NCBI GenBank assembly: GCA_051294375.1
Contig: CM119266.1
Coordinates: 13,332,735 to 13,396,734 of the forward strand
Origin: Paraspadella gotoi
Lineage: Eukaryota; Animalia; Chaetognatha
Direction of reading: 5' to 3'
Length of the DNA stretch: 64,000 bases
Part shown: one piece after another, positions 1-54,700 of the stretch
Layout: each line of letters opens with the position of its first letter
Position numbering within the stretch: position 1 is the stretch's first letter
The notes under the pieces: generated by a model
Database searches by the model: none
What the model saw: the letters and a program-made list of their open reading frames with translations, nothing else
Told to the model about the DNA's origin: nothing
Program-made: the position numbers and the translations under genes

Positions 1-137
1 ATCATTACACAACAATGACAATAGCAAATGACTTCAAGAACTACAACAAAAACAAAAATAACAAATAACGACAACAAAAACGAAAAAAACGAACAACAGC
101 AGCATCAGCAGCATCAGCAGCAGCAAGAGCAGCCCAC

Positions 138-3100
138 CTGCAGAACTCCTCGACGCAGAGGCAGCCGTCGAAGTCGAGGTCGAACTCTTGCGGCGCCGAC
201 GGCGGAAGGAGGTAAGTTTGACCGGAAGATTCGAACCCGTGACCGCTGTAGGCGAAGAAGGCGTAGCACTGCGGCGACAACGCCTCCACGAAGGCGTGCA
301 TCGCCGCCCGCATCTCCGCCAGATCGAGGTCCATGAGGGACACCACCTGGAGGAGAGAGAGGAAGAGACGAAATGAATAATAATTCGAATTTCCGTCACA
401 ATTCTATTCAACAACGAAAATAATGATAAACATGATGAAAATTCTATTTCGTTTATTTGTTTAATAGTTAGCGAGCTATCTATTAGATAGATGGATAGAT
501 AGAAGATTGATTGATAGATACATGGATTGATTTACTGAAAGTTTACTATTTTCAGTCATTGTTTTACATGACAGATAGTTTCTTGATGGATCGATAGACC
601 AGCTCCACCTCGGAATCTTCCTACCAGGATTGACGTTTCCCTTCTCACCCTCGGTCCTCACCTCGAAACCGAGTTGATTCCTCAACACTTCCGTCAACTT
701 CCTCATATCGTTCTCGACTCCCGTCAGTTTGTCCAGATGGTCGTAGTCTCCGTTGCCGATGAGGAGGGCCACTTTCCCGTGGGCCCATAACGCGCCTGAG
801 GAGGGAGTTGATAATTAGGATCTTGAGAAGGTCGTAATCCTGTTTTGGAACCCAAATTTACAATGAATCATTGATAATTTAAGTACGGATATTTTCTTTT
901 TGACTATTTTTTTTTTTTCAGAACGTAAGTGTCATCCTTTTTTGTTGTTGTCGTCGTTGAGAATGTCGTTGAGGCGCGTCGGAGACAATATTGTGGACAA
1001 TCTCAAAGACTTTAAACTTACCGATGTATATTATTATTAATCATTGTCTATTTGATTCGTGTCTATTTATATTATTGTTTCCCCTTCCAGCCCTGCGCGC
1101 ATCGTGCGTTTATTTCGTCGTCGTCGTCGTTGTTGTTGTCGATTGACGCCACGAGCAAGCTCCTCCAAGTTACCCGTTGCGGCTGGATTGACTTTGAGCC
1201 GATACTTCGTTGGAGAGAGTCTCGCCGAAGACGTTGGAGACGCAGCACTGGTACTTCCCCTGATCCTTCGTCTGAGCGCGTTGGATTTCAAGAAGATTGG
1301 ATTCTTCCCCTTTTGATAAAAAAAATTAATTTTTGGATTTAGAATACTCTCATTAATATTCTAATTAACTACTAACTACCAACCCATTAACCTTTGAGCG
1401 TTTTGCCATCCTTGTGCCATCTGAAAGAGAGTGGACCCAATCCATCGGCGACGCACTTGAGTGGCGAGGCCGTTGACGCTGACGCTAGATCCGAAGGCTG
1501 CTCCACCACCGTCGGGGTGGGCGAATTGGGATATGGGATTCCTGGATGTGGACGGGAGGCTGGGAGAATTTGAATAAGGTAATTAATTCAACAAATAGAC
1601 GGTACATTCAATAGATATAAGGAAATTATTAAATAAGGGAAATTATAAAACCTAAACTCGAAAGTCATGAAAAAGCTTAAAACAATCATACTGTGGCGAA
1701 TCCTAAATTCGCCTCCCGTATAGCTTGGTGAAACTCAGCTCGTCCCATTGGCTTGGACAGCTAAGTACTCGTTCACCAACCGTGAGTTCCGGGTTCAATC
1801 CCATCACGGTCACGCTGGTTAAAGTGTGATGGTGTCGGCATAAACACTCCAGTGGTCACTGCAGGTCCAAAGCCCTGAGCGCCAGCTGTCGGGAGATGCC
1901 TCACACCCCAGGCATCACGCATGTCCCTCCGTTGCCATAATACAAAGAATCTTGACAACCGTCAGCTTTCTTACCATCTCCAAATGCAATTGAGTGCGCG
2001 TAAAGTTTGGCGACGATGAAGCCTCCACTGGGTAAGGGGTAATGGGCGCGGAGTTGGCGTCGGAGAAATTGGCGGAGTAGACGAGGGATTCCAACTTCTC
2101 AAGGTCGATTCCGTCGATGACGCAATCCGACTTTTGACCCAAATACTGTTGGGACATCAAGCAATTTTCGGCGCTCGTTCTGGTGGAAAAAATAGAATGT
2201 ATAAAAATGTAGTAGCAAATGATCATTTGTCAAAAAATGCTGTAAAAACTGTTTTTAAGGTTGTAACCATGGTCTCTGCATTTTTTGCCTTCTTGCCCTT
2301 TTGAGAGACTTTGGAAATAAATAAAGTAAAAATAATAAGAATGTTAAAAAAAATTGTGTCGTCTTTATTACTAGCTCCTGTAATAACTGACGAATCTATT
2401 TAGCCTAATATATTAAAAGAGGATTGAGTATTCACTATGGTTATATAAAGTAACGTAAAACAAAAAGAAATAAAACGGGAGAGAATTACAAATTGTTACT
2501 CGGCCAAAATCACGACTGAAGAATGACAAGCGATCGAGAACTAAAAAGCGTTTTGTTTACAATTCAGCGAAGGCCAATGCTTTTGTAAATAGTAAAGAAC
2601 GAGGCCGAAACGAGAACAACAACTCTTTAATATTCTGACAATTGTTTTATGAAATTGAAATAGATACCAGAAAAAATTGAAAGTGATTGTAATTAAGAAT
2701 AAAGAAAGAAAAAAAGAAAGAAACATTGAAAGAAAGGATCAAATATCAAAGAAAGAAAGAAAGAAATGAAGAAAGAAATAAAGAAAGAAAGACAGACATA
2801 AATAAAGAAAAAAAATAAAGAAATAAATTAAAAAAATAAAGAAAGAAATAAAGAAATAACTAAAAAAAAAAAGAAATAAATAAAGAAATCAAACAATCAA
2901 TCAATCAATAGAAAATTTTCACGAACTAACCGATCAGAGCAGAGCGGGTTCTCCTTCAAATCGAGCAACATCAGCGCGGGAAAGTCTCTCTTGGCGAAGA
3001 CGAGATTCTCAATGAGATTTTCCGTGATGAAGAGGTGAGTGAGAAGCGGCAGCGCCCTCACCGACGCCGGCACCTCCGTCAACCGGTTGCGGCAGAGACC

Positions 3101-3550
3101 CAACTTTTTGAGGAACTGGAAACGAGAGAGATCCGGCGCCGCGCGCAGAGAGTTTGTGCAAAGGGAAAGAAGAGAAAGTTGGGCGAGGCTCTCGTGGGCG
3201 AGACCGTTAGCCAACTCCTCCTGGACGACGTCGTCCACTTCTCCCGTCTCGTCCACCAGGAGGCAGCAGTTGAGCCAGAGTTCACGCACCTCGAGCGGCG
3301 ACGACCTCGACTGCTCCAGTTCGGAGAAGGAGTCGAAGAGTTTGGAGATGTGGCCGCGGGAATAGCTCCACTTGAGGACTCCTTCCTCGTCTAAAGTGAA
3401 AGATGGGGGAAGTTTAAATGAAATAATTGATCATTTGAATAATGGGACAATAGAAACAGTAGAGAACCAATTGCTAAATTAATAACAAAATGACGTCGGT
3501 GATTATTTTTTATTTAGCCGGCGACGAGAACAAAAATACTAATACATCCT

Positions 3551-3593
<43 letters not shown>

Positions 3594-4685
3594 TTCTCTG
3601 TCTTTCTCTCTCTCTCTTTTTTACAAAACCTGGTTCGACGGCGCAAAAATTCATAATCTCCTGCTCCAGCCATCGCTCCAACGCCTGACCCATTTTCTTT
3701 ATCTTTGGTCTTCCCTTCAAATCGAGAGTCAAATGAGTCAAATCTTTGAAGGAACAAATGACGCGCGGAAATTGCGCCAAATCGCAGCCGACGAGTTTTA
3801 AAGTTTTGATCTTGCGCAAAGTTCGTATTTTGTCCGGCAACTGGGATGAAAGAGGAAGACGTTGACCTCTTTAAAGATTCGTTGAGTTGTTGGAGGATTA
3901 CCTAAACATAAATCTCGATATGTATCAGTTATCACGATACCTGTTCCAACTTTGTGTTCGTCAGATCGAGATGTTCCAAGTTTTTCATGTGGACGATGTG
4001 GTTGACAAAGTCGGGATCCAACTTGTTGTTCGCCAGATTCAAGGAGGTTAAATTTGAGAAGGCGTTCTCTTGCGAGTCGAAGGGGGCGTGGCAAATCCTG
4101 TAAGAAAAGAAAACAGTTCGTTGGCGTTAAAAAAAAATATGTTTTTTCTGGTCTCTCCCGCATAGAATTTCGTTTTTTGAATGTTATTTCTGTGCCCCAC
4201 TAAAAGTATCAAATTTTTTTTTTCGATACTCTCTTTCTTAAAGTCAATCTGTACGACAGTACAGTTCGTTGTTTTGTTTATCCAACGAGGATGTTTAAGA
4301 AAAATTAAGAAAGTTTACGCTATGTTGATCGGTCTTTAAAATTAACAATAAAAACACGACTTTAATTCAACATTGTGGGCAGTCCTCGTGCCCTCGTCCT
4401 GTCAAAGAGATATGCTTCGCCTCACTTGTTCCCCGAGAGATCCAAGTCTTTGAGGGAGGACGAAACTTTAAGACTCCGCAACTTCTCGTCGTCGACTTCG
4501 TTGGCGGAGAGATCGAGGCTCCGCAGCGTCGCAAAGTCGACGAGCGATTCCAGCGCCGCAGCCTCCAACCGATTGTTCTGCGCGACAAGCATCTCCACCT
4601 TCTTCTCGTCGAAGGGTCGATTGTGGGCGTCGACTCGCGGGAGAGTCGCGGCGTTCTCGGCGCCGAGGTAGACGGTTCGCGCCAT
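138..4685 (-). CDS. LRR-Ig-paracaspase (MALT1-like peptidase C14 domain) gene; 3' end lies outside the window
   Basis: GT-AG exons 4685-4426, 4097-3941, 3840-3630, 3390-2931 encode LRRs (LRSLDLSANEV, LKDLDLSGNK, LTSLNLANNKL, LEHLDLTNTKL, LKKLGLCRNRL, LMLLDLKENPL). Exon 2179-1975 is LRR-cap-like (..QYLGQKSDCVIDG). Exons ~1559-1392 and ~1309-1174 give one Ig domain (PTVVEQPSD..LKCVADGLGPLSFRWHKDGK..LLEIQRAQTKDQGKYQCCVSNVFGETLS). Exons 795-662 and 346-138 give KVALLIGNGDY..LGFEVVSLMDL..FAYSGHGFE..YLLP..CLCVEEF, colinear with the MALT1 caspase-like domain, with the catalytic His retained. About two 1-nt indels are needed for a continuous frame. Confidence 0.85.
1738..1940 (+). mobile_element. tRNA-headed SINE-like element, copy 1 (contains twister fold)
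   Basis: A-box-like TGGCTTGGACAGCTAA, B-box GGGTTCAATCCC. Colinear with 25865-26080 through to the shared 3' end CCGTTGCCATA. Intronic and antisense to the host gene. Confidence 0.8.
1814..1886 (+). ncRNA. type-P5 twister ribozyme-like fold (T2 G apparently missing)
   Basis: P5 GCTGG/CCAGC; P2 AGTGT/ACACT; L1 GATGG; P1 hairpin TG-TCGG-CA; TAA cleavage motif 1841-1843; P3 AGTG/CACT; G-CAGG-TCCAAAGC-CCTG (P4/L4); T1 CCA:TGG. Confidence 0.75.
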
Positions 4686-24372: not shown

Positions 24373-26495
24373 TTACAAGTAGACCGATTCGTATTCGCTT
24401 TCCTCTTCGTCATCTTCGTCGTCGTTTTCGTCGTTAATCTTCTGACATTCGACGACGACGACGACTTTTTCTACTCTGAATTCCGTCACGTTTTTGGTCG
24501 CATTCGATTCGCCGTCGCTCGTTTTTAAGATGGCGTCGACTTCAGACGACGGCTCCCGCGAAATCGGAGCCACGTCGTCGATCTTTGACGCCGCGACGCA
24601 GATTTCTGACACGGCGTCGGTTCCGTCGTCGAAGGTGGCGTCGATTTCCATCTCGGCGCCGTTTCTCGACGCGGCGACGCTCCTCTCCGAAACGGCGTCG
24701 GGTTTATCGTCGATTCCGACGGCGACGCTCTCGGACGATTGATCAATAACAGGCTCGTTCGCATCGAGCGCCGACGCTTTTCCGGCAACACTTTCCGGCG
24801 CTTCTTTGGCAAATTGATTAGTAATTGCGCTTCCTTTTTCCAAATTTCCCGGGGAATTCGCAATCTTTCCGGTCCCGTCTCGGCCATCAAAATCGAGATT
24901 TCCCGATTCGGAATCCTGCGATAAAGTCGACGCCACGAAAGAAGCGCCGGATCCGCTCCCGGCGTCGCTCGAGACCGTGGATGAGGACGAAGCGACGGGA
25001 TCACTTCTGTGGCGGATTACATCCGGACGACAACGCGCCAACTGTGAAGGTTCAAGAAGGGGAAAGGTAATGAAAGGGAATTCCAAAGTGTAAAATTAGT
25101 ACATGAACCAGCTACTACGTTTCGGGTAAAATTGCTACTCAAATAGCCACTACAATATAATTAAATAAGCATTTAAACCTAACTGGGATTGACAGACAGG
25201 CCGATATTCCTAGACGAAAGTTGCTTCGCGATTACTCGCGGCGCAATTAAAAAATATAAATGAAGACAAAGAAATTCTATGACTCCTAGCCATATCGTTT
25301 GCCACGTTCAACATTTCTTTTTTTTCAAATTAACTTTCACCTTTTTCAAATGATGCTCAACATAGTCTGGTTGATTGTAGCAACAGGGATGCATCTTGCC
25401 GCAGCATTTGAATGCGGCATCCCAGTCCAAGCAATAAGCGCACCAACAGCAGAAGGAGAACACGGCGAGGACGGAGAGTGGAAGGCCGATGATGAGGAGG
25501 ACGACGAGTGGAGTGACGTCGTTGAGGGGGGACTGCATTGCAAAGGGGGGGTTAAGGAGGGAGGTGAAAGCAAGGGGCTTAATTTTTTTGTTTTAAAACT
25601 AATGCGTTTAAATGGAGTGATCTGGTGACGAGAACGTAACTGATTACTGATTTTCGCTTCCGCTTTACTGATAGCGAATCCTTTCACAAATCCGTGTTTT
25701 TATGATTGTTTACGACGAAGGAAACTTAGTTTTATACGAGGCGACTTCCGAGGATCTGTCGCACGAATATCATTTGCGAAAGTCAAATTGGACCAAACAA
25801 AAAATAGAGATAATAGAATCCTCTGTGGCAGCAAGACTTAAAGCTGCCTCACTGCTGTCCGTCCTCAGCCTCGTCTCAATGGCTGAGCAGGCTAAATCAT
25901 CTCATTCCATCCGTGCGTCCCGGGTTCAATCCCCGGGTATCCCGGTTCTGGCTTAAATGTGACGGTGCCGGTATAAACATGCCAGTGACAGGAGGCGGTC
26001 ACTGAGGGTCCGCATCCCCTACGCCAGTTGGTGAGATACCCCGCGCCCCAGGTATCACAGGCTATCCTCCCGTTGCCATACCTCCCTCATTCTCGCTCAA
26101 AAGACCAAACAACATAATAAAACTTTAAAAATAATAATAATAAAATAATAAAAAAATAATAATAAAACTTTTAAAATAATAATAATAAAATAATAAAAAA
26201 ATAATAATAAAACTTTAAAAATAATAATAATAAAATAATAATAAAATAATAATAAAATAATAAAAAAAAATAATAATAAAACTTTAAAAGACGCAAATTC
26301 GATGGATCCATGGACAAACAAAGTACATCCACCCGGTATGATACCGGAGATTAAATAACCCTGAATATCATCGTCTCCTTCCAGACTCACCCTATCAAAG
26401 CCGACGGTTGTGGAGCCGTTGCTTCCCGACGCCGGGGGATCCCACTTCCAAGCGGGAGGCGGCGGCGGAGACGAAGGACGCCGGTGCAGCTCCAT
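24373..26495 (-). CDS. single-pass membrane protein with Cys-rich juxtamembrane region and acidic Tyr-containing tail
   Basis: Three phase-0 exons, 26495-26391, 25532-25341 and 25041-24373, join in frame: MELHRR..NGST..DR/SPLNDVTPLVVLLIIGLPLSVLAVFSFCCWCAYCLDWDAAFKCCGKMHPCCYNQPDYVEHHLKK/LARCRP...EEESEYESVYL*. Confidence 0.7.
25190..25255 (-). mobile_element. HINE/Helentron-like element, copy C (fragment)
   Basis: Reverse complement TTTTTAATTGCGCCGCGAGTAATCGCGAAGCAACT...CTGTCTGTC matches copies A and B. Confidence 0.5.
25865..26080 (+). mobile_element. tRNA-headed SINE-like element, copy 2 (contains twister fold)
   Basis: A-box TGGCTGAGCAGGCTAA, B-box GGGTTCAATCCC, 3' end CCGTTGCCATA. Homologous to 1738-1940; intronic and antisense to the host gene. 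Confidence 0.8.
25948..26026 (+). ncRNA. type-P5 twister ribozyme-like fold (L4 AAGC mutated to CAT)
   Basis: P5 CTGGC/GCCAG; P2 ATGT/ACAT; L1 GACGG; TAA at 25974-25976; GC; P3 AGTGAC/GTCACT; P4 AGGG/CCCT; T1 CCG:CGG (covaries with copy 1 CCA:TGG). Confidence 0.72.
26110..26290. repeat. AT-rich tandem repeat (~48-nt unit containing AAAACTTTAAAA and (AAT)n)
   Basis: About four imperfect units visible, immediately 3' of SINE copy 2. Confidence 0.8.
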
Positions 26496-28332: not shown

Positions 28333-28844
28333 CTACTTCCACCTACGAAAGAAGTCCTTCATGATCTGCCGGCAGCATTCCCGGAACCGCGACCCGGCAG
28401 CGCAGTAAATGACGAAGTTGACGGCGTGATTGACGGAGTCGAGGACGGTGGCGACGTCGTCGAAGACGGGGCCCAACCTGCGGCCGGAGATGCGTTCGTA
28501 GACGACGGAGACGGTGGCGGGCGCCTTGCAGACGAGAAACCCGCAACACGTGACCACGAGCATGAGGGTCAGCGTGTTCTCGCGTTTATTGCGCGAGGAC
28601 ATCTGGCGGTCGGGTATGGCCGAGCGGGAGGCGCGGGAGGATCGAGCGTCGACCGACCGACGGGCGGAAGCGGAAGCGGAGAATTGTGAGAAGCGGGAGG
28701 AGAAGCGTTGGGCGAAGCTGGATTTCCGACGGCCGTCAGGGCCGGAGGACGGAGAGGGAGGCGGCGCCGATGACAGAGGATTTCTGGTATTTTTAAAATG
28801 CAGTTTTTAAAAATATTCTTTCTTCTCTTTCTATCTCTCTCTCT

Positions 28845-28915: not shown

Positions 28916-31900
28916 CTCTCCACGTTCAACCACAACAACACACGCTTTTTATCGCCGCTCCCCGAATCTCCGTCGTCTTCTTCAACCACCGCGCCACAAC
29001 TTCGGGTCGCGTTCCCCATCTCCCCTCCATCCTCGACACCTTCGAATTCTTCCACGACCGTTTCCATGCCTTCTTCCACAACGCGGCGTCCGTCCGTCTC
29101 GTCGTCCTTTTTTTCGTCGTCGTTGTCATCGTCGTCGTCAGAGATACGCGACTCCACCGATTGGCTCGTCTGGAGTCGCTTCCTTCGAGACATCTCCATC
29201 TCTTGGTCGCGATCTTCGGTTGCATCTATGAGTCGGATCGATTGATTTTTAAAATTACTAGTAAATATTTTATTTTGGGGAGTATTATAGTATAATAGAG
29301 TATAGCAATTTATAAGAACGGTTATAAAATTACGACTGTGATGTAACAATTATCCAATATATGCATTTATTTCTTGGACAGGCTTTTCCAGATGAAAAAA
29401 AAAAACACCATTTTTTTCAAAACATAGCTTCTCGACTCGAGTGACATTAGTTTAATTTCTAATCAATATAAATTATATTATAAATAACTGATCACTTTCG
29501 CCCCCCAAAAAACTGACCGGCCTGCAAGAAGAGGTTCTGCCTCAACCAAAAGAGATGAGCGATGATGATGGCGTTGATGACGGCGACGCAGATGAAAGGG
29601 ACGACGTTGAGGAACGCGAGTTTGGCGAGGGAAAAGACCACGCCCACCCAAGATTGGGACCTGAAAATCGGTTGTGGGCGACTTTAGAATCAGATGTATC
29701 TCTCCAAAAATGGGGGGAGGGTGTAATGACGTAAAATTTGGAGCCGCAGGTGTAAAAAAAGTATTTAAAAAAAAAGCTTTGAAAAGTTTTCATTCATCAT
29801 AAGCCTAATCTGCACGAACGATTCTTTTCAGGTATCGAAAATCCCCATAGAATTTTCTTCTTTCTCTTTCATTTTTTATCGCGCGCGAAGTTTTTCATTC
29901 GATAATCGATTCCCTTTCTTGTCGCTCGAANNNNNNNNNNNNNNNNNNNNNNNNNNNNNNNNNNNNNNNNNNNNNNNNNNNNNNNNNNNNNNNNNNNNNN
30001 NNNNNNNNNNNNNNNNNNNNNNNNNNNNNNNNNNNNNNNNNNNNNNNNNNNNNNNNNNNNNNNNNNNNNNNNNNNNNNNNNNNNNNNNNNNNNNNNNNNN
30101 NNNNNNNNNNNNNNNNNNNNNNNNNNNNNNNNNNNNNNNNNNNNNNNNNNNNNNNNNNNNNNNNNNNNNNNNNNNNNNNNNNNNNNNNNNNNGAGTAAGA
30201 TTTGCCAAAAACCATAATTCCGAGGGAAAAAATTTCTTAATCGACGTCTGAACTTTGGAAGGATGAAAATTTGGATGGTGAGAGGGGGAGTGGGTGGTGA
30301 AGAGGTAATACCCTGAGGGTCTCTCGAAAATTTTGATGAGTGAGGTTAGTGAAGAGAAAAGTGAAAAAAATGGAACCGANNNNNNNNNNNNNNNNNNNNN
30401 NNNNNNNNNNNNNNNNNNNNNNNNNNNNNNNNNNNNNNNNNNNNNNNNNNNNNNNNNNNNNNNNNNNNNNNNNNNNNNNNNNNNNNNNNNNNNNNNNNNN
30501 NNNNNNNNGATTGGGAAATGAGAAAATGAAAGAGAAAATGAAAAAAAAGTTTCATGAGGAAAAAGATTAACCGAGAAAAAAAAGAGCAACGAATTTTTTA
30601 TGAGAAAACGAGAACATGGAAGGAGAGGATAAAAAATGATAAAATATAAAGTNNNNNNNNNNAGGGGGGGAGTGGGTGGTGAAGAGGTAATTCCCTGAGG
30701 GTCTCTCGAAAATTTTGATGGGTGAGGTTANNNNNNNNNNNNNNNNNNNNNNNNNGCTTTCCTTTTTTTACGCTCGGTTCCATTTTTTTGTTTTCACACA
30801 TGTTATATCTCTTTCAACTAAACCTCACTCATCAAAATTTTCGAGAGACCACTCAGGGTATTACACTCTTCAACCCACCACTCCCACTCTCACCATTCCA
30901 AATTTTTCCATAACCTCTAGCAAAGTCAGAACGTCGATTAAGAGAAATTTTATCATCCCTCGGGAAATATGAGTTTTTTGGCAAATCTTCACTCCGCGAA
31001 AGGAATAAAACGGCATATGATGTCGCCCGGATGACATCCAGAGGGCTCAGCATGGAAGGTCGGGCAGAAATAAATAGCAGACCCTCGAGATAATAGAATA
31101 AACGTTTGAGATCGCCCTCATCATTGATCCGCTCGTTTCATATTACTAGCTTTTCGAGCGGACAAGAAAGGGAAATCGAATTATCAGAATGAAAACACAT
31201 TCGCGCGCGAAATTGAAAAATGAAAAGAGAAAAGAAGAAAATTCATATGGGTGACGATTTCGATACTGAAAAGAATGCGTTATCGTGCAGATTAGACTTA
31301 TGATGAATTTAGAAAACCTTTGTCAAAAGCTTTTTTTTTAAATAACTTTTTTTACACCTGCGGCTTAACACAAAATTTTTACCGTCATTACGACCTCCTA
31401 AGCTCGGCGCAGGCAACATTATTTTGGAGAGATAATCCTGAATTCTAAAAGTATGACCCACAACCGATTTTCAAGCAATGTGAGAAGAGATGGAGGCTGG
31501 TCTTTCCCCTGCCAAAGTCCTCCGCGTTCCTCAACGTCGCTCCCTTTCATCTGGGTCGCACAGTCAATCAACGCCGCATCCTCAATCGCTCTATCTACTG
31601 TTTGGTTGTAGGCAGGAACCCTCTTGCAGGCCGGTCAGTTTTTTTGGGGGGCGAAAAGATGATCAGTTAGTTATATAATATAATTTAATATTGAATTAGA
31701 AATTCAAACCTAATGTCACTCGGTCGACAGAACTATGTCTTTGAAAAAAAATAGGGGTCGATTTTTTTTTTCATCTGGAAAAGCCTATACCAAGAAATTA
31801 AATAGCATATTATGGGTTGGATAATTGGTTGACAATCACAGTCGTATCTTTTATAAACCGTGCTCTATAATGCTTCTGACATTATATACTATTAATAGCA

Positions 31901-34900
31901 TAACATTCACTCCACCCAAAATAAATATATTTAACTAGGTAATTTTAAATCATTCGATCCGAGACTCATAGATGCAAGACCGAAGATCGCGACCCAAGAG
32001 ATGGAGATGTCCTCGAGGAAGCGAAAACAGATTGGGAAATGAGAAAATGAAAGAGAAAATGAAAAAAAAAGTTTCAAGAGGAAAAAGATTATCCGAGAAA
32101 AAAAAATAGCAACGAATTTTTTTATGAGAAAACGAGAACATGGAAGGAGAGAAGAAAAAATGATAGAATATAAAGTGAACTTAAAAAACGATAAACAAAA
32201 GACAGAAATAGAAAATTAGCAAATAAAAATATGAACTAATAATTAACTACCAAATAGATCCTCGGAGGAAAATATAAACGATGAAATTAATGAAAAAATG
32301 AANNNNNNNNNNNNNNNNNNNNNNNNNTACCGCCGCCTCCGCGCCATCATTTTCAATTTTGCCTTTTTCATTTTTTTCTTTAATTTCATCGTTTATATTG
32401 TTCATCCGAGGAATCTATTTGAATAAATTAATTATTAGTATAATTATTTTAATTTGCTAAATTTACATATTGTCTGTCTTTTTTTCTTTATCGTTTTTTT
32501 AAGTTCACTTTATAGTTTTATCATTTTTTAATCCTACTTCCTTCCATGTTCGTACAGTTTCTCATAAACAAAATTCGTTGCTTCTTTTTATTTTTCTCGG
32601 TTAATCTTTTCCGATCATGAAACTTTTTTTTCAATTTCTCTTATCATTTTCTGCATTTACCCAATCGCTATTCCTTTTTTTTACTACGGTTCCATTTTTT
32701 TTCCCTTTTCTCATTCAACTTAACCTCGACTCATCAAAATTTTCGAGAGACCGCTCAGGGTATTAAACTCTTCAACCCACCCACTCCCCTCTCACCATCC
32801 AAATTTTCAAACCTATGAAAGTCAGACGTCGATTAAGAAAATTTTTACCCATCGGGAAATATAGGTTTTTTGGCAAACTCTTCACTCCGCGAAAGGAATA
32901 AAACGGCATGTTTGTCGCCCGATGAACTATCACCAGAGGGCTCAAGCGGGTGTGAAGTCGACGAGCGAAATAAATAGCAGACCCGTCGAATATAAGAATT
33001 AATACGTTAGATATCGCCCTCACCATGATCCGCTCGTTTCATTATACAGGCTTTCGAGCGGACAAGAAAGGGAAAATGCGATTATCGAAATGAAAACACA
33101 TTCGCGCGCGAATAAAAAATGAACAAGAGAAAGAAGGAAAATTCTTATGGGTGATATTTCGATACCTGAAAAGAATTCGTTACGTGACAGATTAGAGCTT
33201 ATGATGAATTAGAAAACTTTGTCAAAGCTATTTTTTTTAATAACTTTTTTTACACCTGCGGCTTCCAAATTTTTACCGTCATTACGACCCTAACTCGCGG
33301 AGCACATTATTTGGAGAGGCAGGTTAATCTGAATTCTAAAGTATCGACCCACAACCGATTTTCCAAGTCAACTGCTGAGAATGAGGAGTGGTCTTTCAAC
33401 CTGCCAAAGTCTACGCGTTCCTCAACGTCGCTCCCCTTTCATCTGCAGTCGCACGTCATCAAACGCGCCATCCTCATCGCTCTATCTACATGTATTGGTT
33501 GTAGGCAGAACCTCTTGCAGGCCGGTCATTTTTTGGGGGGCGAAAAGATGATCAGTTATTGTTAATCATATTTAATATTGATTAGAAATTCAAACTAATG
33601 TCACTCGGTCGGACAGAAGCTTATGTCTTTGAAAAAATGAGGGGTCGTTTTTTTTTTTTCACTGGAAAAGCCTGATACACAAAGAAATAAATAGCAATAT
33701 TATGGGGGGAGGTGGATAATTGGTTGACAATCACAGTCGTAATATTTAATAAACCGTCTCTTATATAATGTTCTGACATATATATACTATAATAGCATAC
33801 ATCACTCCAGTCCTCAAAATTAAATATATTTAATAGGTAATTTTAAAAATCATCGACTCCGACTCATAGTGAAGACCGAAGATCGCGACCCAAGAGATGG
33901 AGATAGTCCTCCGATGGAAGCGAAAACAAGAAAAAAAAAAGAGCGACAATTGTTTCGAAATCGAGGTCGACCTTCTCTTTCATACATCATCGATAAGACC
34001 ATTCTCTTCGGCTTATTGGCTCCGGGAAACGACGCCTCGGCCGACAGGAATGACGGACAAACTGACAGATTGGTTCTCGGGCAGAGACGGACAGAGAAAG
34101 GAAACAAAATGAAATTTGCAACTTGACGAGAAAAGTAGATTCGGAAAATAAAAAGTAATTAAAAAGAAAAAAATAGAATGAATTAAGCTAGAAAAAAAAG
34201 GAAGTTCGATTAAAAAACATCAATATATCAATCAAATCTATCAATCAATCCAATCAATGAATCAATCGCTGAAAAAACCTCCGAGTTATCTTCTTTGTCA
34301 TTGTTCCATTGGCCATCTCGTTCTCCCAAACGTCGGTCAAGTCATTCGTCGCCGAAGAAAACGCAGATTCCGACACATTGCGAAATTTGGAACCGTTGAC
34401 GTCGGCGGACATTGCAAAGCTGTTGACATCGATTCCAACGTCGCCGGACGCGTCGTCGGCCACTGCGGCGTCGTCGCCGGAAGGACGCTTCTTCGGAAAT
34501 ACGATCGGGAGAATGTAGAGCGCGGCGCTGACGAAGAGCGCNNNNNNNNNNNNNNNNNNNNNNNNNAAAGAGACCAGAGAGAAGATGAGCGTCTACTTGA
34601 CGGCGGCTTGGAGGCGGCGGTTTTTTCGAGACTCGGGCACGCTGCGTCCTCACCACTACGTACTAATCATCTCTTCAACGGGAGTAAGATGTCGGACCCT
34701 GATAGATGCGGTAGTGGGTGTTATGGTGAGAGTGGGTAATAGATTATGAGCTTATCATTGTAATGTATATCATAACGAAAGGGAGGAAAGTCAATATTAG
34801 TATAATTAGCGAGACTAATGGTCCATCGTTTGAAATCATTTGGCCCAAAATATGATCGGGCAATCCAGAATAAAAAAGCTATATTTATATACAAATGACA

Positions 34901-35189
34901 ACTACTGTAATCCTGTATTATTGCAGGCAATAAAAGTTTCTTACGTAACGCTAAATTACTATATAAGTTTACGATAAGTCAAATAGTAGCATTGATTTTA
35001 GTGTACTATGTATATAAACCTGGTTTTGCTCCGCTATTGCGTAGATCGTGACTCTTAGAAGGTGAGCACCAGAAGTTGGCAAATACATTAGATGAGAAGT
35101 TGAGATTTCGACTCAGGATAAAAAAGCGAAAGGGGATGACAGGAGAAGAGTTCGGAAGAGAGAGAGAGATGAATGTAGAGAGAAGCGAG

Positions 35190-35245
<56 letters not shown>

Positions 35246-37084
35246 CAAGATTCGTCCGTTTTCTTTGAGTATCGGGAATATTGAATAACTTTGTCGTGCC
35301 TCGCTTTATCGCTTCGTGAGGCGAAAGGAAGGACCAATTATTGTTAACTATTCTCACCGCCGATAACCTACACCCTTCAAATGTCGATTCTAGGTGTCTC
35401 GTGCGACTGCAAGAAATCCATGGTCTGCAGCGTCGTCGTACCACACCCATGGACAGAAGGCCATCCCTCTAATTGGCAGCCCCAACGTAGGCTCGTCGAT
35501 CAGGTCATGGAAGCAACGTCGATCAGATTTATCGTCGTCGTGCGACACTGCATGGCGAGCGATTCTTCGGAGTAAGTTTAAAAGGGGGTAGAAAAAACAA
35601 GACAAGCGAATATTGGATTTTATTTAGCTCAGGTATCTGTGACGTGCCCGTAAGAGAGATCTCGTGAGAAAGGAGACGAAGAAAATTCTTAAAAATTAGT
35701 CGTATATTTCATATACATAACTACATAGAAGGACATTACTTTTTCTAAAAACATTCCTCAATCCTCATTGGGATCCTAAAAAAGAGACGTATTATGGCAA
35801 CACCGGTTGCTGTGATGGCCCCCATATGGGATGGGGTCAGTGCCTCACCTGTCCTCGGCTATGGGGGCTTCACGTCGCTCAGTGACGCCTAGTCACTCGA
35901 GCGCGGTTCACCCTTGGACCGAGTCTTCGACTTCTGCCAACGCAAGAGGGAAGTTCATTAGGAAACTGTGGATGGAACCACTACGCCTGATGGTGTGTTC
36001 CACCTCTGAGCAATTGGACTTTGCTGAACGATGGTGGAACGTGAGGGGTGTGCAATATACCGCCACAAGTATGTAATATTATAAAAGTTACCGGATTAAG
36101 AACATTTAACAAGTAACATTGAGTAAGCAGATAAACACTGAGTAACATGGTACAACACAGAAGTATAGTTAACCATAATATATTATAATATATAAAATAA
36201 AAAAATAAACAAAACGTAATAGGTAATAGATTGTAACGATTAAATAGTATCAGACGATATAAATAGTAAACATTAAGTACAATAAAAGAAGATGAAAATA
36301 AAAGATAGATGAAAACAAGATAATTTGGCAAATTTTTCATATAATGCTGTAGAGAATGAGAATCACCTAACACGTCAACAATCGATCACGAGTTCCAAAA
36401 GCACATATTGTACTACAATATATCGGAGAGACGTCATTCACGGAGCCACACCCGAGGAGCAAGACCGATTCGCGATCGACGTCCAGCACAGAGCGAATGT
36501 GCACTAGGACATTAACCAGGAATCGAGCAAACGCGCTTGCCCCAGAAATGGAACGCGAGATTGTTATTGTATAGAGAGCCCGCAGAGTAAGAGGAGTGAG
36601 GCGTTCGATCAGCAGAGCAGTTCAGCTGAGAGGCGGCGCACCGTGGCCAGACAGCAGCACACAAGTCATGAGTATTTGAGAGCGGGACCCGAGTTAACAG
36701 AATAAAAAGTTTAAATTATATTGGTTTTGCGAACAAGATTTTATAAAAGTAGACTAAGTAGCTTCAATTCGAGGGAGCTTTGAAAGAAGATGAAGAGAGA
36801 GAGGAGAGAGCGAGAAGAGAGGAGAGAGAGAGAGAGAGAGACGAGAGAGAAGAGAGAGAGAGAGAGCAGAGAACAATTAAATCGTTTCCATGTTTAGTTT
36901 TGATCATTCCCAGCATGCGGTACGTGCGACAGAGAGAATACAATGCAAACTGCGGCCAATCGAATGAAAGGGTGAGGTTAGGTGAGAAAGTTTAACAATA
37001 ATTGGTCCTTCCTTTCGCCTCAGGAAGCGATAAAGCGAGGACGAAAAGTTATCAAATCCCGACGGAATGAAACGGACGAATCTG

Positions 37085-37174
<90 letters not shown>

Positions 37175-37790
37175 CTCTCTCTTCCCGACCTCTCTCCTGA
37201 CCCCTTTCCCTTTTTTAATCTGAGCGAAAAATCTCAACTTCTCACTATATGATTTGCCAACTTCTCTCACCTCAAGAGTCACGAGTCAGAATTAGCGACA
37301 AAAAACAGGTTGTAATATACATAGTACATAGAAAATATATTTGACTATCGTAAATATATAGTAATCATTACGTACGTAAGAAACTTTTATTGCCTGCAAA
37401 ATACAGGATTAAGAGGGTCATTATATAAAATGTTTTATTTATTGCCATCAATTGTTGGGCCAAGATAAACGATGGACCATTAGTTGTAATTAACTAATTA
37501 ATTGACTTTCCCTTTCGTTATGAATAAATACAATGATAAGCTCATAAATCCTTACCCACTCCATCCCACACCGCATCACTCGGGTCCGACACTTACCCGT
37601 GAAGAGATGATAAACGAGGGTGAGGAGCAGCGTGCCCGAGTCGAAAACCGCCAGCGCCGTCAAGTAGACGCTGCTCGAGAGTCGACGAAGATGTTGAGAA
37701 GTCAGTACGACGATGCAGAGGACGTTCATGAATGTGCCGATCGGGCAGATGCCGTAGATGAAGGGCAGCACCCGACTGCGAAATCATGTT
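28333..37790 (-). CDS. class A (rhodopsin-like) peptide GPCR, FMRFamide/sex-peptide-receptor-like; fragmented by gaps and noisy duplications
   Basis: TM1-2 exon ~37790-37596 (GICPIGTFMNVLCIVVLTSQHLRRLSSSVYLTALAVFDSGTLLL). TM4/ECL2 exon ~34541-34290 (ALFVSAALYILPIVF...NGS..NVS..NGT). Possible ECL2 Cys exon ~34075-33966. Acidic ICL3 exons ~29650-29545 and ~29230-28925. TM6-7 exon 28783-28333 (RENTLTLMLVVTCCGFLVCKAP...NHAVNFVIYCAAGSRFR). TM3 appears only as a noisy inverted copy (~35390-35570, ..RFIVV..); TM5 not found. Confidence 0.8.
30755..33922. repeat. indel-rich inverted re-reads of 29177-~30650 (probable raw-read gap fill)
   Basis: 30755-32025 and ~32350-33922 are reverse complements of 29177-30650 with dense single-base indels; 32030-32170 repeats 30510-30650 directly. 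Flanked by N-gaps. Confidence 0.8.
34567..35385. repeat. indel-rich inverted copy of ~36960-37690 (GPCR TM2 exon and downstream intron)
   Basis: AGCGTCTACTTGACGGCG..GACTCGGGCACGCTGC at 34587 mirrors the exon at 37600-37680; GGACCAATTATTGTTAA at 35331 mirrors 36991-37008. Confidence 0.8.
35793..36027 (-). mobile_element. noisy fourth copy of the twister-SINE family
   Basis: Minus strand: TCAGC start, GGTTCCATCC B-box-like, P3 AGTGAC-TAGGC-GTCACTG, GAAGCCCC, 3' end GTTGCCATA. Lies in low-quality sequence. Confidence 0.5.
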
Positions 37791-40241
37791 CTTTGAGATG
37801 AGAGGAGGAAGAGCAGAGAGAGAGAGAGAAAGAGACGAGAGCGAAGAGAGATTTGGAGAGAGAGAGAGACGTTATTTTTCTTTTTTTTTATTCGGAAATA
37901 TTCCTCGCGTTTCACGACTCTGACGTAAGAAGCGTCGAGATTCTAAATTACGAATCAACGAACGGTCGCGCGATCGTCCACGCGCGACACGACGCCACTC
38001 GGCACGACGGCCCGTTTGCGGTTGCGCGCCATTTCTAAAAAGATGCGAGTTGACATTCATCGGCGCGAATTTTGCGATCAGTCTTAACCCTTAGGACAGC
38101 AAACAATCATTATCATTATCAAAAACATTTGTCCATTCACCCCCTTTCTGTTTAAGCTTTTTATATATTTGATTTTCAATAAATGAGTTCTTTAACAAGA
38201 ATGATGTATGATTGATATCTTAATTGGAAACATCGGGAGTAAGTTTTGCTATTTTTGTATTACAAAATATGCTAAAAGTAAATAATATTAAATATTATAG
38301 AGAAAATTTAACTATATTTTTTTTTAAAGATTATTCGGTGAAACAAGTAGTTTTGTATATAGCAGTACATAGTAACTCATCTACATACTACTACATAGTT
38401 GAAAAAAATTATTCTTTGATCAGTGAAGATTTAAACCGGGTTTTTTTCGTGAATTACAAAAATGTAAATAATTCTACTGACATAAAATTTTATTCCCTCA
38501 TTCGAACTCTTTGATCAATAACATGAAGGACGTATAAGAGTCATTATAATTGTATTTTCGCGCGCATTCCCTCGATGAAATTATTGAAATAAACTCGCGT
38601 TCATTAATTTCAATTGATCTCTAATTGTTCTTACTAAAAATTCCCACCTCCACTGATAGTATCGTAAAAAAGTAACGAAAGGAAAAGATGACGAGGACGA
38701 ACAGGCGTCGACATTCCCGGAAACCGTGGAGAGACCGAGGAGTCTTCCCGAGAGGCGTCACCGAATAACCGCTGGTCACGCCTCCCGCGGAACTTCATCC
38801 CTGGCCGGCTCGGCCGGTGACGGATCCCGCAGCAACCAGCTCCCTCTCGGATCAGGGAGATGGTAACGGCGGGAGGCTCACCGACCGAGACGGTACAGAG
38901 AGAGGGACGCCGAAGGCGACGACAGCAAGATCTCCGAAGAACGCCTACCGGGAGGGATGTCCTCAAGCTGGTCACAGGGATACTGGTCCTCTGGTCTCTG
39001 GAATACGGAGAATATCTCTTTTATATCGTTCCTTTTTGGGTGTTTGTACGCCTACGGTTTCAAAACCGAGTAAGTTAATAGTGGCCTTCTCTTTTAAAAA
39101 TATCATGAATTTTTATGTGTTTCGACCGAAAAATTCTTTCTTTAGAAAAGAAATTTTAACATTGGAACAATCATCCTGTATAAAATAAACGTACTTTTTT
39201 GATAGTATGCAATATGCAAATGTGAATTTGGTTTAAAAACTAATATCGATTGAACTTTTCTAAACGATCGGTGAATTTTTTAATCGTAAAATCTTGATAA
39301 GATCACTTGAGAGCTGACGAAAGAAAGAATTGTTCGAAATATTTTATAGGCACGTGTGATACTTTCTAAAAGTAAAACAAAACAAATTTCTCTTTATAAA
39401 AAATTATATACAAAATATACATACAATTAGTATAAGTATCAAAGACTGCGACGTAATTTGTTCGTCTTCTGTTCGTCTACCCGCAAATGGAATATTTGCA
39501 TCAATCACAAACTACGATTTTCCTCAAGGTACGTTTAGTTTTCGGAGTGAACCTTGCTTACTCTCAGGGAATAAGGTAAGGTAAAAATGGAAGGATATTA
39601 CGCATAACACAAATATTAATTTGAAAATGGAGAAGAAATGAAAAAGCGCGGAAAAACATAAGATCTGCAAGTCTCTCTAGAATTTCGAAAACAAACGTGA
39701 AAACATTAACGCGAAACCGACGATGCGGTGGCAGATTCAAATATTTGACAGGGAGCGTTAATTAAAATGAAATTAAGACGCCTTTCAGAAAGCAGTAGAT
39801 ATTTAATTTTACTACTTAACTACTTTCTTGCAAAAAAACTTTATATAAAAATAGTATAGTAATCTTACTTTATAGTAATACTGAATAACCATGAATTTTC
39901 ACCGCACTTTCATCCCAATCTAACCGAGATGCTTCACGGAAACTTCAAGAGATTGCTCACGTTTTTATCACAACTTCAAAAATATCCTCACCAAGAAAAG
40001 GATCTCATCTCACGCGCGTGACAGAGAAGAAACGCATAAAACGGTTGGTGTTCTAGAGGAGAGGCCTCGGATGAATATTCATTTTTCAAATCGTCGGCCC
40101 GCCACATCTTTCGAACGAAGATTATATCGTAAATAATAGTTCTCGTTAACGCTGGAGGGCGGGGTAGCCTAGGGTTCGACTGGGTTCTTAATGAGAGGGT
40201 TATCTAAGGTCTGACGGTTTGTCTTTCTGTACTACTATATT

Positions 40242-40274
<33 letters not shown>

Positions 40275-40638
40275 AAGTTTTTTTTTTTTTTTTTTTTTTT
40301 TCCGTCCAATATTACTTGTTGATTGAATTGATTCAATTTCTATCTTAAACTGGTTTCATAATCACGTCATAACGTTTTTAACAGTCTGTAGCTCTTTAAA
40401 TCTTTTTAGTAATTTTTGATTAATTTTCCTTCCTTTTTTTAGTATCACGTACTAACAATTTGAAAGTCTGTACATAGTTCTTAAAATTTTGGATTTTCAC
40501 GTTTAAAAATTAATTTTAAATGAGTTTTAAAAAAATGAATTTTTTACCATTAACTTAGTTTTCGTAAACGAAATGACCTCATGTATGGGCCACAGTAAAT
40601 TGCGCCCCGGTTTAGTCTAATTCATATTCATATTCATA

Positions 40639-40673
<35 letters not shown>

Positions 40674-41573
40674 CCCTTCTCCTTCCTCATAGTCAAACGA
40701 ATATCTTAATCTGTGAGTGCGAACAAGGCTTTTCTTTTTGTTTTCCCCTGGGAATTATTTCTCTACGTGTCTTTCTTTTCTGCCGTAACTCGTCAATTAG
40801 GAAAACGACAAAGAGTACGTCTTTTATCGTTCAGATTTTTTTTTCCCCAAATTTAAAAGAGACTTACGTTTTCAACTAATTTATTTAAGAGTATTTTAAA
40901 GAGTATTAGGTTTGAAGAAATATTTAGAAAGAACGATTGTTTTGAGTCGTCGCAATTTGTCTTAAATAAAAAAAAAATTGTTAAATTTAATGATAAGAAG
41001 ACGTTATTATCCCGCGAGTTAAACGTCTTTATTTCCTTCCTTCCTTTCCTTCCTTCCTTCCTTCCTTCCTTCCTTCCTTCCTTCCCTTCCTTCCTTCCTG
41101 TCCTTCCCTTCTGACCCTTCTTGCCAGGGTTTTTACTCTCTTATTCTCTTTTTCTTGCCCTCGGGCCTCTGCCATGTTTAAATTGTCCGGTCCTTAGTCC
41201 TATTTCTCGTTCTTTCCATTCCACACCGTTTTTCGTTACCTCACTGCATCCCACGAAGCCAAAGCTCAAATGCTTTTTCCTTCCCTCCCCCCGCCTTCTT
41301 TCCATGACCCTGCTGTTCCCCTCCCTTTTCCCATCCCTGGACCTCGCTCTCTGCTATTTCTTCCCGACCCCCCTTCTCGCTCCCCCTTCGCCCTCCCCCC
41401 AAAAAAGGAAATCTTTCCCAGAGTCCTACAATTTTGTCGCAATTTTCGCCGTCGCAGCCGAAGAAAAGAAAAAAAGACCTCGTTCGTCAACCATGATCTT
41501 TTCTCCTTCCGTTTCTCTCCCTCACTCTCTCTCCACTTAATAATCGTTAAAAAAGCATAGCTTTCCATTTTTT

Positions 41574-41642
<69 letters not shown>

Positions 41643-41646
41643 TTTT

Positions 41647-41736
<90 letters not shown>

Positions 41737-41739
41737 CTC

Positions 41740-42112
<373 letters not shown>

Positions 42113-42537
42113 AGAGTTTAATTAGAAGACATATATATAACGTTGACGGATAGCCCTTTTTTTCCAGGAAAGCTTATTAAAAGACGTTTAACTCGCGGGA
42201 TAATAACGTCTTCTTATCATTAAATTTAACAATTTTTTTTTTTATTTAAGACAAATTGCGACGACTCAAAACAATCGTTCTTTCTAAATATTTCTTCAAA
42301 CCTAATACTCTTTAAAATACTCTTAAATAAATTAGTTGAAAACGTAAGTCTCTTTTTAAATTTGGGGAAAAAAAAAATCTGAACGATAAAAGACGTACTC
42401 TTTGTCGTTTTCCTAATTGACGAGTTACGGCAGAAAAGAAAGACACGTAGAGAAATAATTCCCAGGGGAAAACAAAAAGAAAAGCCTTGTTCGCACTCAC
42501 AGATTAAGATATTCGTTTGACTATGAGGAAGGAGAAG

Positions 42538-42576
<39 letters not shown>

Positions 42577-51700: not shown

Positions 51701-54700
51701 TCCACAATTTCTGTCGTTGAGCTGATTTCCATAAACATTCGCACAGTCTTCGATTCCTCCCGAATCGTTTGGTTCTCCCAGACGCCAGTGAAAATCGAGC
51801 CTGGCCCGACTGACATCCGGCTCCGTCATCCAGATCCATTCTAAAATAAAGTTAACATTGTAATTGTCTAATATTAATTCTGCAGAGTTTGAACATCATC
51901 ATCATTTTCTTCACTTAGACATTAGACAATACACCAATACTTCATTGAAACTCACGGGCTTTAAAATTTTAAAATTTAAAATTTCGGGGTTCTTTTTCCG
52001 TTACTTTTGCTACTATGGTGGACTAAAATCCACCAACCGTTCGTCAGCGGCCATTGGTGCCGGAGGCAAGTCATTCGCCTCCCAACCCAAAGGTCTGGGG
52101 TTCTTGCCCGGTGGTCGCCTAGCAGTTAAGAGGGACGGGGCGCTTAACCCGCCAGTAACATGGTGTTACAGCCTGATCCGAAGCTCAAGGACTGCTAACG
52201 GTTCTGTCACTAACACATAACAATAATTACTGTCTCTTCACTACTTTTGTTCGCATATTAAGGAATGAGCTACTGGGCGGAACAACCTTTACGGTTACAC
52301 CACGGCAATCTTCAAAAAGTTCGGGTCGGGCAGCTTTGCCCATGACATGAATCCAAGACTCTCAAATCGGACCATATACATTATAATTATGAAAGATTTT
52401 CACCCTTCCCCTACTTTTCGTCTCGCATTCAACTCGTCCTCTTCTCTCGATCTTCCTCCCCCACCCCCACCCCCACCCCCCTACGGCCCCTCGGTCTCAC
52501 CGCCTCTATCGTTCTGTCTGCCCCCGACCCAAAACGTGTATTCCTCCGTCGATCCGAACGCCTCGTATTTCGCGTTGGCCAAGAATCCGCCCTCGTTTCT
52601 GCAGGTGATCATCGCCTCGTCCCATGACATTGGGTCTCTTCGAAGTTCAAATCTCCGAGGTCCGGATGTAATTGGTTCGATGGGCGTCGAGGACCGCGAC
52701 GTCGGACTTTCTCCGGACGCCGGGTCGGTGGCGTCGTAGAGAATCCCGTAGTCCGTTCCGGCGTGGGCTTGTTGAAAATAAAAGGGACGTGAGGCGAAGG
52801 CGATTGGGAGGAAGAGAGAAAGAAACGCTACCATGCGGCGGTAGAATTTCTTAGTCGGCATCTGGAAGGAAGGCGTGCCTGTTCGCGAGGGCGAGATTAT
52901 AAAATTATTTTCGGTTGATGGAATTTAAAACTGACGATACATAGTATGTATAGTATGTATAGTATTACATACGAAGTAAATGAAGTATATTGTCCTCGTT
53001 GATATTGAAAAATCAATATTTTCCTGGTTGTATTATCGTTTTATAAAAAGAGAGATAAGGATGCGGCCATACCTACTTTTTACAATTTTCTTTCTTTATA
53101 TTTACGCTATAAAATCAACGAAATTGAAGGTAGAAAAACGTTTCGACAAACGAGTCGCTGCGAACGAAGACTGATAAAAAAAATTTGAGATGAAACAAAC
53201 AAATCGATAAGAAATTTTCAACTCGGATTAAATTGCTTAGTATTTCCTTGAAACTTGAACCAAACAATGAATAACGTTAAAATTATAAAGCAGAAGTGAT
53301 TTTAAAACACAAGTTTTTATTTACTTTACCTTATTGCAATTTGTATTGTTACTTTATATTATAACTTATATTTTGAAATTGTTACAATCAAAACGGGCAT
53401 TTTGTAGTATATTTGTATATTATATTTTGGCGGCCAGTACTTCTCTTTTAGGATTTCACCGTTTGTCTTTTGTTTTATTTTCAGAAACGACGCGGAAAAA
53501 CCTTCGCGTTCCTCCCTACTTCGAAGACTACATTGATTTGCGGAAAGAATTTGCGCTATGTTACCGGACGGAGGAGTCGCTTTCGACAAAGGAGATGCTA
53601 CAATGTAAATCACGGTTGACAACCAAATTAAAAAAACTTATCGTTTTTTATTTCATTTAGCTAGCGTGAAAGTTTTTACTTTTTTAGTGAGCTGTCAATG
53701 CCACTCCTTTTATTAGAAGCTATTCTCAGATGTGATTAATTTTATAAAAAATTCTTTCGATTCATTTTTCTTTCATAAACTTTTCTTTTTAATATTCCAT
53801 TTCCATAGCTAATTAAAGATTCATTTCTCAAACTAATTCAATAATTTAACTAATCTACCTACTTCATATAACTTAAGACAAGTAAAGAAAAAAAATCAAA
53901 ATATACGTCTTTTTTTCCTCATTCTTTTTTTTATCTATCGTACTTGGGAAAGAATGTTTATTCTCAGTTATTGGATGATCATTCCATTTCTGTGTTCGTT
54001 CTCAATGACAGTTCCTCAAATTCGATAAGCTTAAACGTAATGGCAATTTGTCCGTACTCCGCTGACCTTTAGAAGCAATCAGCCCGCGACATATCGGATA
54101 AAAACTGACTTTTTTTTACTGTTTTTCGTTTTGTACTTATTTCCCCCGAATCCAAAAGGAACCAAATTAGAAAAAATTGCAAGCCTCCGCCCTTTACGAA
54201 CACGGGATTTGACAGATTCTCGAAAGAACCGATATAATGGGCAAATAAAAGTGAGTTCCATTGTCAACTCGAACTCGGTTCTTTCCCGATCAAACAGAAT
54301 GGGGCACCGGGGCAAACACGAATCTTTTTTTTTTTTTTAATTTCTCACAGAAAGACCAAATGAAGAAGAAGAAGAAGAAAGTGGTTAAAGAAAAAAAAAA
54401 GTAAAGAGTTTTTAAAAGACGTGAAAGCCAAATTTTGAAAAAAAGAAAAAAAAGGGAAAAGATAAGGCACCTCTCTCTCTCTCTCACATTAGTAGTAGTG
54501 GTGCAAAGGTGGGGCCTATCTCGCCGACTCTTCCCCTTCGGCCCTCGATGTAAAAGAGCAAACACTCTCTTCCCTCGTCTTAACAGTGTGAGAGAGTGAG
54601 TTAGTTGTATGTAATATATTGCTGGGGGTTAAAAAAAAAAAAAAGCAGTGAAAAGACAGAAAATATATTTTGGATCTTATAACGCGTCGTTCTCGTCCCA

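Follow-up and report, generated by a model that had tools for sequence, protein, structure and literature searches.

A 64,000-nucleotide window of the genome of the chaetognath Paraspadella gotoi (assembly GCA_051294375.1, contig CM119266.1, positions 13,332,735 to 13,396,734) contains three short repeats, referred to here as copies 1 to 3. They are probably solo long terminal repeats (LTRs) of a Helenus-type non-autonomous LTR retrotransposon that carries a tRNA-type promoter and a type-P5 twister ribozyme and multiplies through a circular intermediate. Their membership in Helenus is likely but not complete. Each repeat comprises a short U3-like part with a hairpin, the A and B boxes of a tRNA-type RNA polymerase III (Pol III) promoter, a twister fold and a pyrimidine-rich end (Table 1). 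The Helenus frame is already known, and the new part is the occurrence of a twister fold and a tRNA-type promoter motif within one LTR, of which we could not find a description. The type-P5 twister ribozyme itself was reportedly presented by Roth et al. 2014.

An exact 4-bp target-site duplication (TSD) flanks each of the three intact copies, with a chance match of 0.0073 per site, and the 3′ ends of all three elements are sharp and lack a tail. A preliminary description of the window had recognized the three elements, which indeed exist, but had begun them too late; the true starts lie 30–46 bases further upstream. Copies 1 and 2 are 74% identical over the aligned columns. Copy 3 is only 55–60% alike to copies 1 and 2, and was found by a profile of these two copies with an nhmmer E value of 0.006.

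The ends bear on the class of the element, which had been taken for a short interspersed nuclear element (SINE). A SINE has no means of carrying bases that lie before its own Pol III start, and insertion by target priming leaves ragged tails and duplications of variable length. Here, ~35–50 fixed bases precede the predicted Pol III start, the last base is fixed, and no A-rich or repeat tail follows it. Compared with tRNA-derived SINEs, the 5′ end thus does not coincide with the Pol III start, and neither a variable tail nor a variable TSD length is seen. Because of this upstream fixed sequence, the tailless fixed 3′ end and the uniform 4-bp duplication, the SINE label is unsupported. The fixed ends and the 4-bp duplication point to an integrase and not to target-primed insertion.

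The same ends recur in public sequencing data. Contigs were taken from four (X1, X2, X5 and X9) of nine public runs that contain the window, share one organism label and belong to three studies, one run possibly deriving from the source sample; X5 is a DNA run and X9 a probable RNA run, and the family data cover the copy 1 and copy 3 families. The contigs placed on copy 3 in the four runs number 12,940, 10,625, 2,665 and 835, and those placed on copy 1 number 3,114, 3,368, 1,760 and 274. In X2, X1, X5 and X9, respectively, 152, 145, 112 and 30 contigs mark the copy 3 family start at 52014, 188, 166, 119 and 45 its end at 52240, and 89, 78, 77 and 19 the copy 1 family start at 1692; the copy 1 family end at 1939 is marked by 46, 43 and 39 contigs in X2, X1 and X5. 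The flanks beyond these ends are unrelated between copies (agreement 0.40–0.46). Since the contig ends coincide with the window ends and the flanks are unrelated, the families are dispersed and have base-exact ends. The summed depth relative to flank in the two deepest runs is ~12,700–18,100x for copy 3 and ~2,900–3,700x for copy 1, values that give an order of magnitude only and no copy number. The earlier expectation of a high-copy family with at least two subfamilies is therefore borne out, the four runs revealing two families that are dispersed, of high copy number and bounded by fixed ends. When the flanks are pooled, both families display a roughly palindromic, AT-rich target preference centered on the duplicated four bases.

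Downstream of the A and B boxes, all three copies exhibit the helix order P5-P2′-GA-T1′-P1-UAA-P2-T2-P3-P4-L4-P4′-P5′. A tolerant descriptor of this fold, composed with the three copies already known, matches three sites in the window, exactly copies 1–3, and none in 60 locally shuffled windows searched on both strands, which agrees with the type-P5 twister reading proposed previously. A second control for the descriptor is provided by metagenome loci that match the conserved letters alone and fail in pairing: a generic pattern returned 120 loci from 27 of 64 metagenome parts scanned, and the best among the 119 of 120 parsed forms 13 of 18 pairs, none being a twister. Generic twister-P5 patterns matched 5 and 3 viral loci, none of which pairs as a twister when inspected by eye. 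The copy 1/2 motif has no match in the viral contigs, and the copy 3 motif has none in the metagenome contigs.

The general base G and the U^AA cut site are present in all three copies and show no majority change in either family. The 3-bp pseudoknot is paired in every copy; the 2-bp pseudoknot is paired in one of the three window copies and in the majorities of both the copy 1 and copy 3 families. Copy 1 has a mismatch at 1848 within the 2-bp pseudoknot and a P3 that is ~10 nucleotides shorter than that of its family, where 94% of the depth in X2 has the pairing base at 1848 and the longer P3 stem is that of copy 2. The L4 of copy 2 is altered at two positions, one of them within the 2-bp pseudoknot. 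In copy 3 both pseudoknots and both catalytic positions are intact, with a single mismatch in P3 and another in P4, a P1 of 1 bp and a P2 5′ strand of 3 nucleotides. The pairing base occurs in 99% of the X2 depth at 52154 and 98% at 52188, so that the two copy 3 mismatches are absent from the family majority, which shares the 1-bp P1 and the three-base P2 strand. Of the 25 listed differences between this family and copy 3, 9 are C>T or G>A changes at positions where the window copy has a CpG, an indication that the host methylates repeats of the copy 3 family.

Two-sided changes distinguish copies 1 and 2 in P2, in T1 (the 3-bp pseudoknot) and twice in P4, and the P3, P4 and P5 sequences of copy 3 differ from those of copies 1 and 2 yet still pair. 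The pseudoknot covariation noted beforehand, CCA:TGG versus CCG:CGG, is real between families. However, it is weaker evidence than it appears because both changes are CpG-type transitions, and the two-sided changes in P2, P3 and P4 are better evidence for the fold. The Rfam Twister-P5 model (RF02684) matches copy 1 with 21.7 bits and an E value of 0.0065, below the gathering threshold of 37.6; the Rfam check suggested in the preliminary description thus gave a sub-threshold match for copy 1, and neither copy 2 nor copy 3 was matched. A scan of the whole window with Rfam likewise returned no twister match. The repeats resemble RF02684 in helix order, in the GA and UAA around the active site, in L4 and in both pseudoknots. 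They differ from it in that P1 is a 1–2 bp hairpin, P3 is present, the copy 3 family has a 3-nucleotide P2 strand, and T1 is CCA:UGG or CCG:CGG instead of the CCC-type of the model. Twister identity is therefore assigned by structure and not by the Rfam threshold, and self-cleavage is a prediction. In a high-throughput test of natural type-P1 twisters, imperfections in P1, P2 and P4 were tolerated and pseudoknot mismatches were harmful (PMC11662667), and weak activity is accordingly predicted for window copies 1 and 2.

Upstream of the twister fold, A- and B-box motifs are found in each of the three elements, in keeping with the tRNA-type head described before; they are degenerate in copy 3 and come nearer to the motif in the copy 3 family majority. 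ARAGORN identified no tRNA genes in the window. Over 1692–1820, one divergent variant of the copy 1 family has an X9 depth of ~1,050, compared with 34.6 for the host mRNA. In the DNA runs it amounts to no more than a few copy-equivalents, its loose ends near 1819–1822 continue differently, and it may represent a strongly transcribed locus.

The relationship to known elements is closest with Helenus, miniature terminal-repeat retrotransposons (TRIMs) with a tRNA-like Pol III promoter inside their LTRs (Kojima 2024, PMC10886601). Animal Helenus elements have a 4-bp TSD, primer-binding site (PBS) sequences common to Gypsy elements, and solo LTRs (PMC10886601). The repeats of the window are alike in their tRNA-like A and B boxes within an LTR-sized unit, 4-bp TSD, high copy number and predicted solo LTRs, and also in their TG or TA starts, CA or TA ends and pyrimidine-rich 3′ end. 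In the Helenus supplement, some LTRs share their first 8 bases with copy 2 or the decayed relative described below, TA forms the start or the end of others, and a similar pyrimidine tract closes many LTRs (PMC10886601). The difference lies in the type-P5 twister that follows the tRNA-type head here. Among the places listed for nine twister-type short motifs in that supplement, where 70-letter line wraps may hide motifs, there is no twister context, and in the portion of Kojima 2024 used here ribozymes occur only in one reference title (PMC10886601). A survey of the open literature, mostly titles and abstracts, with Repbase, Dfam and subscription journals outside its scope, revealed no twister in an LTR or TRIM. 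The statement that the family had not been described is thus half right: the frame matches Helenus (PMC10886601), and it is for the twister within it that we could find no description.

Two wasp elements, Helenus-2_SyJa and Helenus-2_SyUm, have an LTR of 277 bp, internal regions of 485 and 487 bp, a TSD of 4 and a Trp PBS, and their two-LTR form with PBS and polypurine tract (PPT) is published (PMC10886601). When read by eye, these wasp LTRs consist of U3, a tRNA head, a complete type III hammerhead and U5. The apparent hammerhead comes just after box B and comprises a GUC site, a 7-bp stem I, CUGAUGA, stem II, GAAAC and stem III; its loops I and II are complementary over ~12 bases, and it goes unremarked in the portion of PMC10886601 used. 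Layout and size are the same as in the elements of the window, with the apparent hammerhead in place of the twister. Rfam scans of the window and of the copies returned no hammerhead match.

Plant LTR retrozymes also carry a ribozyme, a hammerhead, in the LTR and have a 4-bp TSD and solo LTRs (Cervera et al. 2016, PMC4918200). A Gypsy helper and a circular RNA have been proposed for them, the circle because cuts in both LTRs remove the R region (PMC4918200; PMC7761336). The window elements are likewise non-coding, with a ribozyme in the LTR (its self-cleavage being predicted), a 4-bp TSD and predicted solo LTRs. They differ in their animal host, in having a twister and not a hammerhead, in the tRNA-type Pol III motif inside the LTR, and in LTR length (227–257 bp compared with 300–400 bp).

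The proposed cycle would begin with a master element in which two LTRs enclose a short internal segment bearing PBS and PPT. Transcription by Pol III would begin ~35–50 bases into the 5′ LTR and continue through it, as proposed because the LTR contains no T4 run, an absence that alone is not significant. The twisters would cut in both LTRs. The P5 permutation places the cut internally, so that both ends of the unit RNA could pair again through P5, P2 and the pseudoknot, and the re-paired ends would be ligated to form a circle. A Gypsy-type reverse transcriptase acting in trans and primed at the PBS would copy round the circle, rebuilding both LTRs, and a Gypsy-type integrase, also in trans, would insert the DNA copy. 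Single LTRs would result from recombination between LTRs or from short copying of the circle. Since a single LTR could not regenerate the upstream 35–50 bases from a Pol III transcript, solo LTRs would be dead ends, which would fit the decay of the window copies.

Several observations weigh against solo LTRs of such an element. All four copies in the window, the decayed one included, are single, and neither a two-LTR form nor a PBS, a PPT or an internal region was found. No high-depth end-to-start joint is present among the 15 joints listed per family (43 and 69 further joints exist), although the loose-end tables pool contigs, such that a minority two-LTR form would not show. Instead of TG..CA, the elements have TG..TA or TA..CA ends. 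Of the three copies, just one is scored by Rfam, and below threshold, the decayed window copies being those scored. ViennaRNA, which ignores pseudoknots, favors other folds in all three window cores; the nested twister part has energies of -15.0, -20.2 and -4.7 kcal/mol in copies 1, 2 and 3, compared with minimum free energies of -24.9, -26.4 and -29.0 kcal/mol. The copy 3 family may cut poorly because its P2 strand has 3 nucleotides and no extra base at the family level. The lack of a T4 run inside the LTRs carries P values of 0.70–0.95 per copy, and the scarcity of TTT is only suggestive (P 0.07–0.44 per copy, dinucleotide shuffles). X9 behaves like RNA, in that a 4,346-nucleotide contig covers only the exon 1975–2180, but its depth along both families tracks that of X5, U3 included. 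No jump in its depth marks the predicted start or the predicted cut site, where contigs cannot reveal RNA ends.

These points leave room for other explanations. One is that the repeats are solo LTRs in which the twister is a passenger or a substitute terminator of the 3′ LTR, the element using ordinary R-region strand transfer and no circle. The cost of a cut in the 5′ LTR, which removes the R region unless ligation follows, speaks for this, as do the misfolding of the window cores in silico and the odd P2 of the copy 3 family. Many Helenus tRNA-like parts, in the portion of the supplement used, also end in a T run (by eye, uncounted) that is absent here. Yet two family majorities with members only 55–60% alike each retain the two pseudoknots and the two catalytic positions, and a ribozyme serving only the 3′ LTR would nevertheless be carried by both LTRs in identical form; we regard this explanation as unlikely. 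It is quite unlikely that the repeat is a self-sufficient unit without an internal region, in which head-to-tail dimers would give rise to a monomer circle, the TGG near the 5′ end would act as PBS, and an integrase-using retroelement would supply the machinery. All four window copies are single and open with two bases followed by TGG, as Helenus internal regions begin in the material used from PMC10886601, and the flanks appear random in all four runs. However, the stretch before the circle start is pyrimidine-rich and so provides no PPT, and the joints listed include no high-depth end-to-start joint. Moreover, published Helenus LTRs also start with TGTGG, and high solo fractions are known, with 1114 LTRs to 151 internal parts in Ajax-1_LiLo (PMC10886601).

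The remaining alternatives dispense with LTRs. A miniature inverted-repeat transposable element with 4-bp TSDs that carries a captured SINE and ribozyme would account for the fixed ends, the palindromic target preference and the imperfect terminal inverted repeats of copies 1 and 2 (7 of 9 bases in copy 2). Copy 3, however, has no terminal inverted repeat, and divergent families retain the A and B boxes together with two-sided changes in the stems, for which a DNA-only cycle would not select, making this origin very unlikely. The least probable of these alternatives is that target-primed reverse transcription inserted the repeats as SINEs or Penelope-dependent elements, in the manner of the Schistosoma hammerhead repeats or non-LTR retrozymes. 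In its favor are the tRNA-type head and a size and copy number like those of SINEs, and animal retroelements with ribozymes are on record: Pol III hammerhead SINE-like repeats, tandem and non-LTR, in Schistosoma (PMC6765202), and twister variants (T-variant) heading the long interspersed nuclear element Perere-3 (PMC8501958). They resemble the window repeats in that a ribozyme lies in an animal retroelement, in Schistosoma with a Pol III promoter. But these elements end at the cut site or form tandem arrays, whereas the window copies are not tandem and have an internal cut site and integrase-type ends. Together with the fixed bases that precede the Pol III start, the fixed, tailless 3′ base and the uniform 4-bp duplication, this largely refutes a SINE or Penelope-dependent origin.

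If the repeats are LTRs of a Helenus-type element with an active twister, this would be the first role in LTR elements for twister ribozymes, would extend LTR retrozymes from plants to animals, and would bring together Helenus/TRIMp3 and LTR retrozymes, which have been described apart from each other. The role of most eukaryotic twisters is open, and the retroelement cases found in print, Perere-3 (PMC8501958) and RTE, are non-LTR elements with the twister at their 5′ end. Here the twister stands in an LTR, downstream of a Pol III promoter and in two divergent high-copy families, a setting that makes precise predictions, namely the cut position, the lack of an R region and the joining of the circle. 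The apparent hammerhead in the wasp Helenus elements suggests that the design arose with either ribozyme. We tentatively raise the possibility of an unrecognized animal class of Pol III-driven LTR retrozymes, which would be Helenus-type TRIMs with small circular RNAs and a Gypsy helper. As part of the same tentative proposal the ribozyme would be interchangeable, a twister here and a type III hammerhead in the two gall-wasp-family Repbase elements. LTR repeats of this kind risk being misfiled as SINEs.

Two relics had been claimed in addition to the three copies. The first (relic 4), which spans 35793–36067, is a decayed minus-strand relative. Its global alignments have z scores of 4.6 with copy 1 and 4.8 with copy 2, and none of 300 shuffles reaches its score. 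It keeps remnants of P5, P2, P3 and L4 and has lost the cut-site segment and the B box; its 4-bp duplication has one extra base. Relic 4 was missed both by nhmmer with the copy 1 and 2 profile and by Rfam. A hammerhead-like motif in its middle was dropped, as it needs four changes, aligns to the decayed B box and has no Rfam support. The claimed relic at 60730–60757 is a chance match, scoring 26 compared with 27 and 26 in other 300-nucleotide tiles among 504.

Table 1 Coordinates of the repeats and their predicted parts within the 64,000-nucleotide window.
Feature	Position	Strand	Remarks
Copy 1, whole element, predicted solo LTR	1692..1939	+	248 bp, TG..TA ends
Copy 1, 4-bp duplication	1688-1691 and 1940-1943		exact
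Copy 1, 5′ hairpin	1695..1713	+	7 bp; predicted U3 part upstream of Pol III start
Copy 1, tRNA-type promoter motifs	A box 1749-1760, B box 1792-1802	+	
Copy 1, type-P5 twister fold	1814..1886	+	predicted cut between 1841 and 1842
Copy 2, whole element	25824..26080	+	257 bp, TG..TA ends
Copy 2, 4-bp duplication	25820-25823 and 26081-26084		exact
Copy 2, 5′ hairpin and promoter motifs	hairpin 25827-25848, A box 25880-25891, B box 25923-25933	+	
Copy 2, type-P5 twister fold	25948..26027	+	predicted cut between 25974 and 25975
Copy 3, whole element, second family	52014..52240	+	227 bp, TA..CA ends
Copy 3, 4-bp duplication	52010-52013 and 52241-52244		exact
Copy 3, 5′ hairpin and promoter motifs	hairpin 52016-52035, A box 52055-52066, B box 52099-52109	+	
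Copy 3, type-P5 twister variant	52121..52196	+	predicted cut between 52145 and 52146
Relic 4, decayed relative	35793..36067	-	shared first and last motifs; near-match 4-bp duplication

The copies had been placed in introns, which holds for copy 1, antisense in intron 1560–1974 of a minus-strand gene as indicated by the exon-only contig and splice signals, and for copy 3, on the sense strand of an intron between ESRP/fusilli exons. The ESRP/fusilli gene has many exons and occupies 48750–61930 on the plus strand, its best protein match being 72% for one exon. The copy 3 intron also contains a small lectin-like open frame on the minus strand (52484–52924, by eye, with no Pfam match), and beside copy 3 the segment 51844–51909 reaches ~35x flank depth in the DNA runs and is another small repeat. 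Around copy 1, the minus strand of 25–3900 includes a caspase-domain exon (PF00656, 479–814) and leucine-rich-repeat exons (2900–3430). Nested direct and inverted duplications of 0.7–1.7 kb with 78–98% identity lie in 29176–33928 and 39333–45688, the former containing masked stretches; both regions are either repeats or assembly artefacts. Near them, some G-protein-coupled receptor exons are duplicated at 28336–28806 and 34588–37783.

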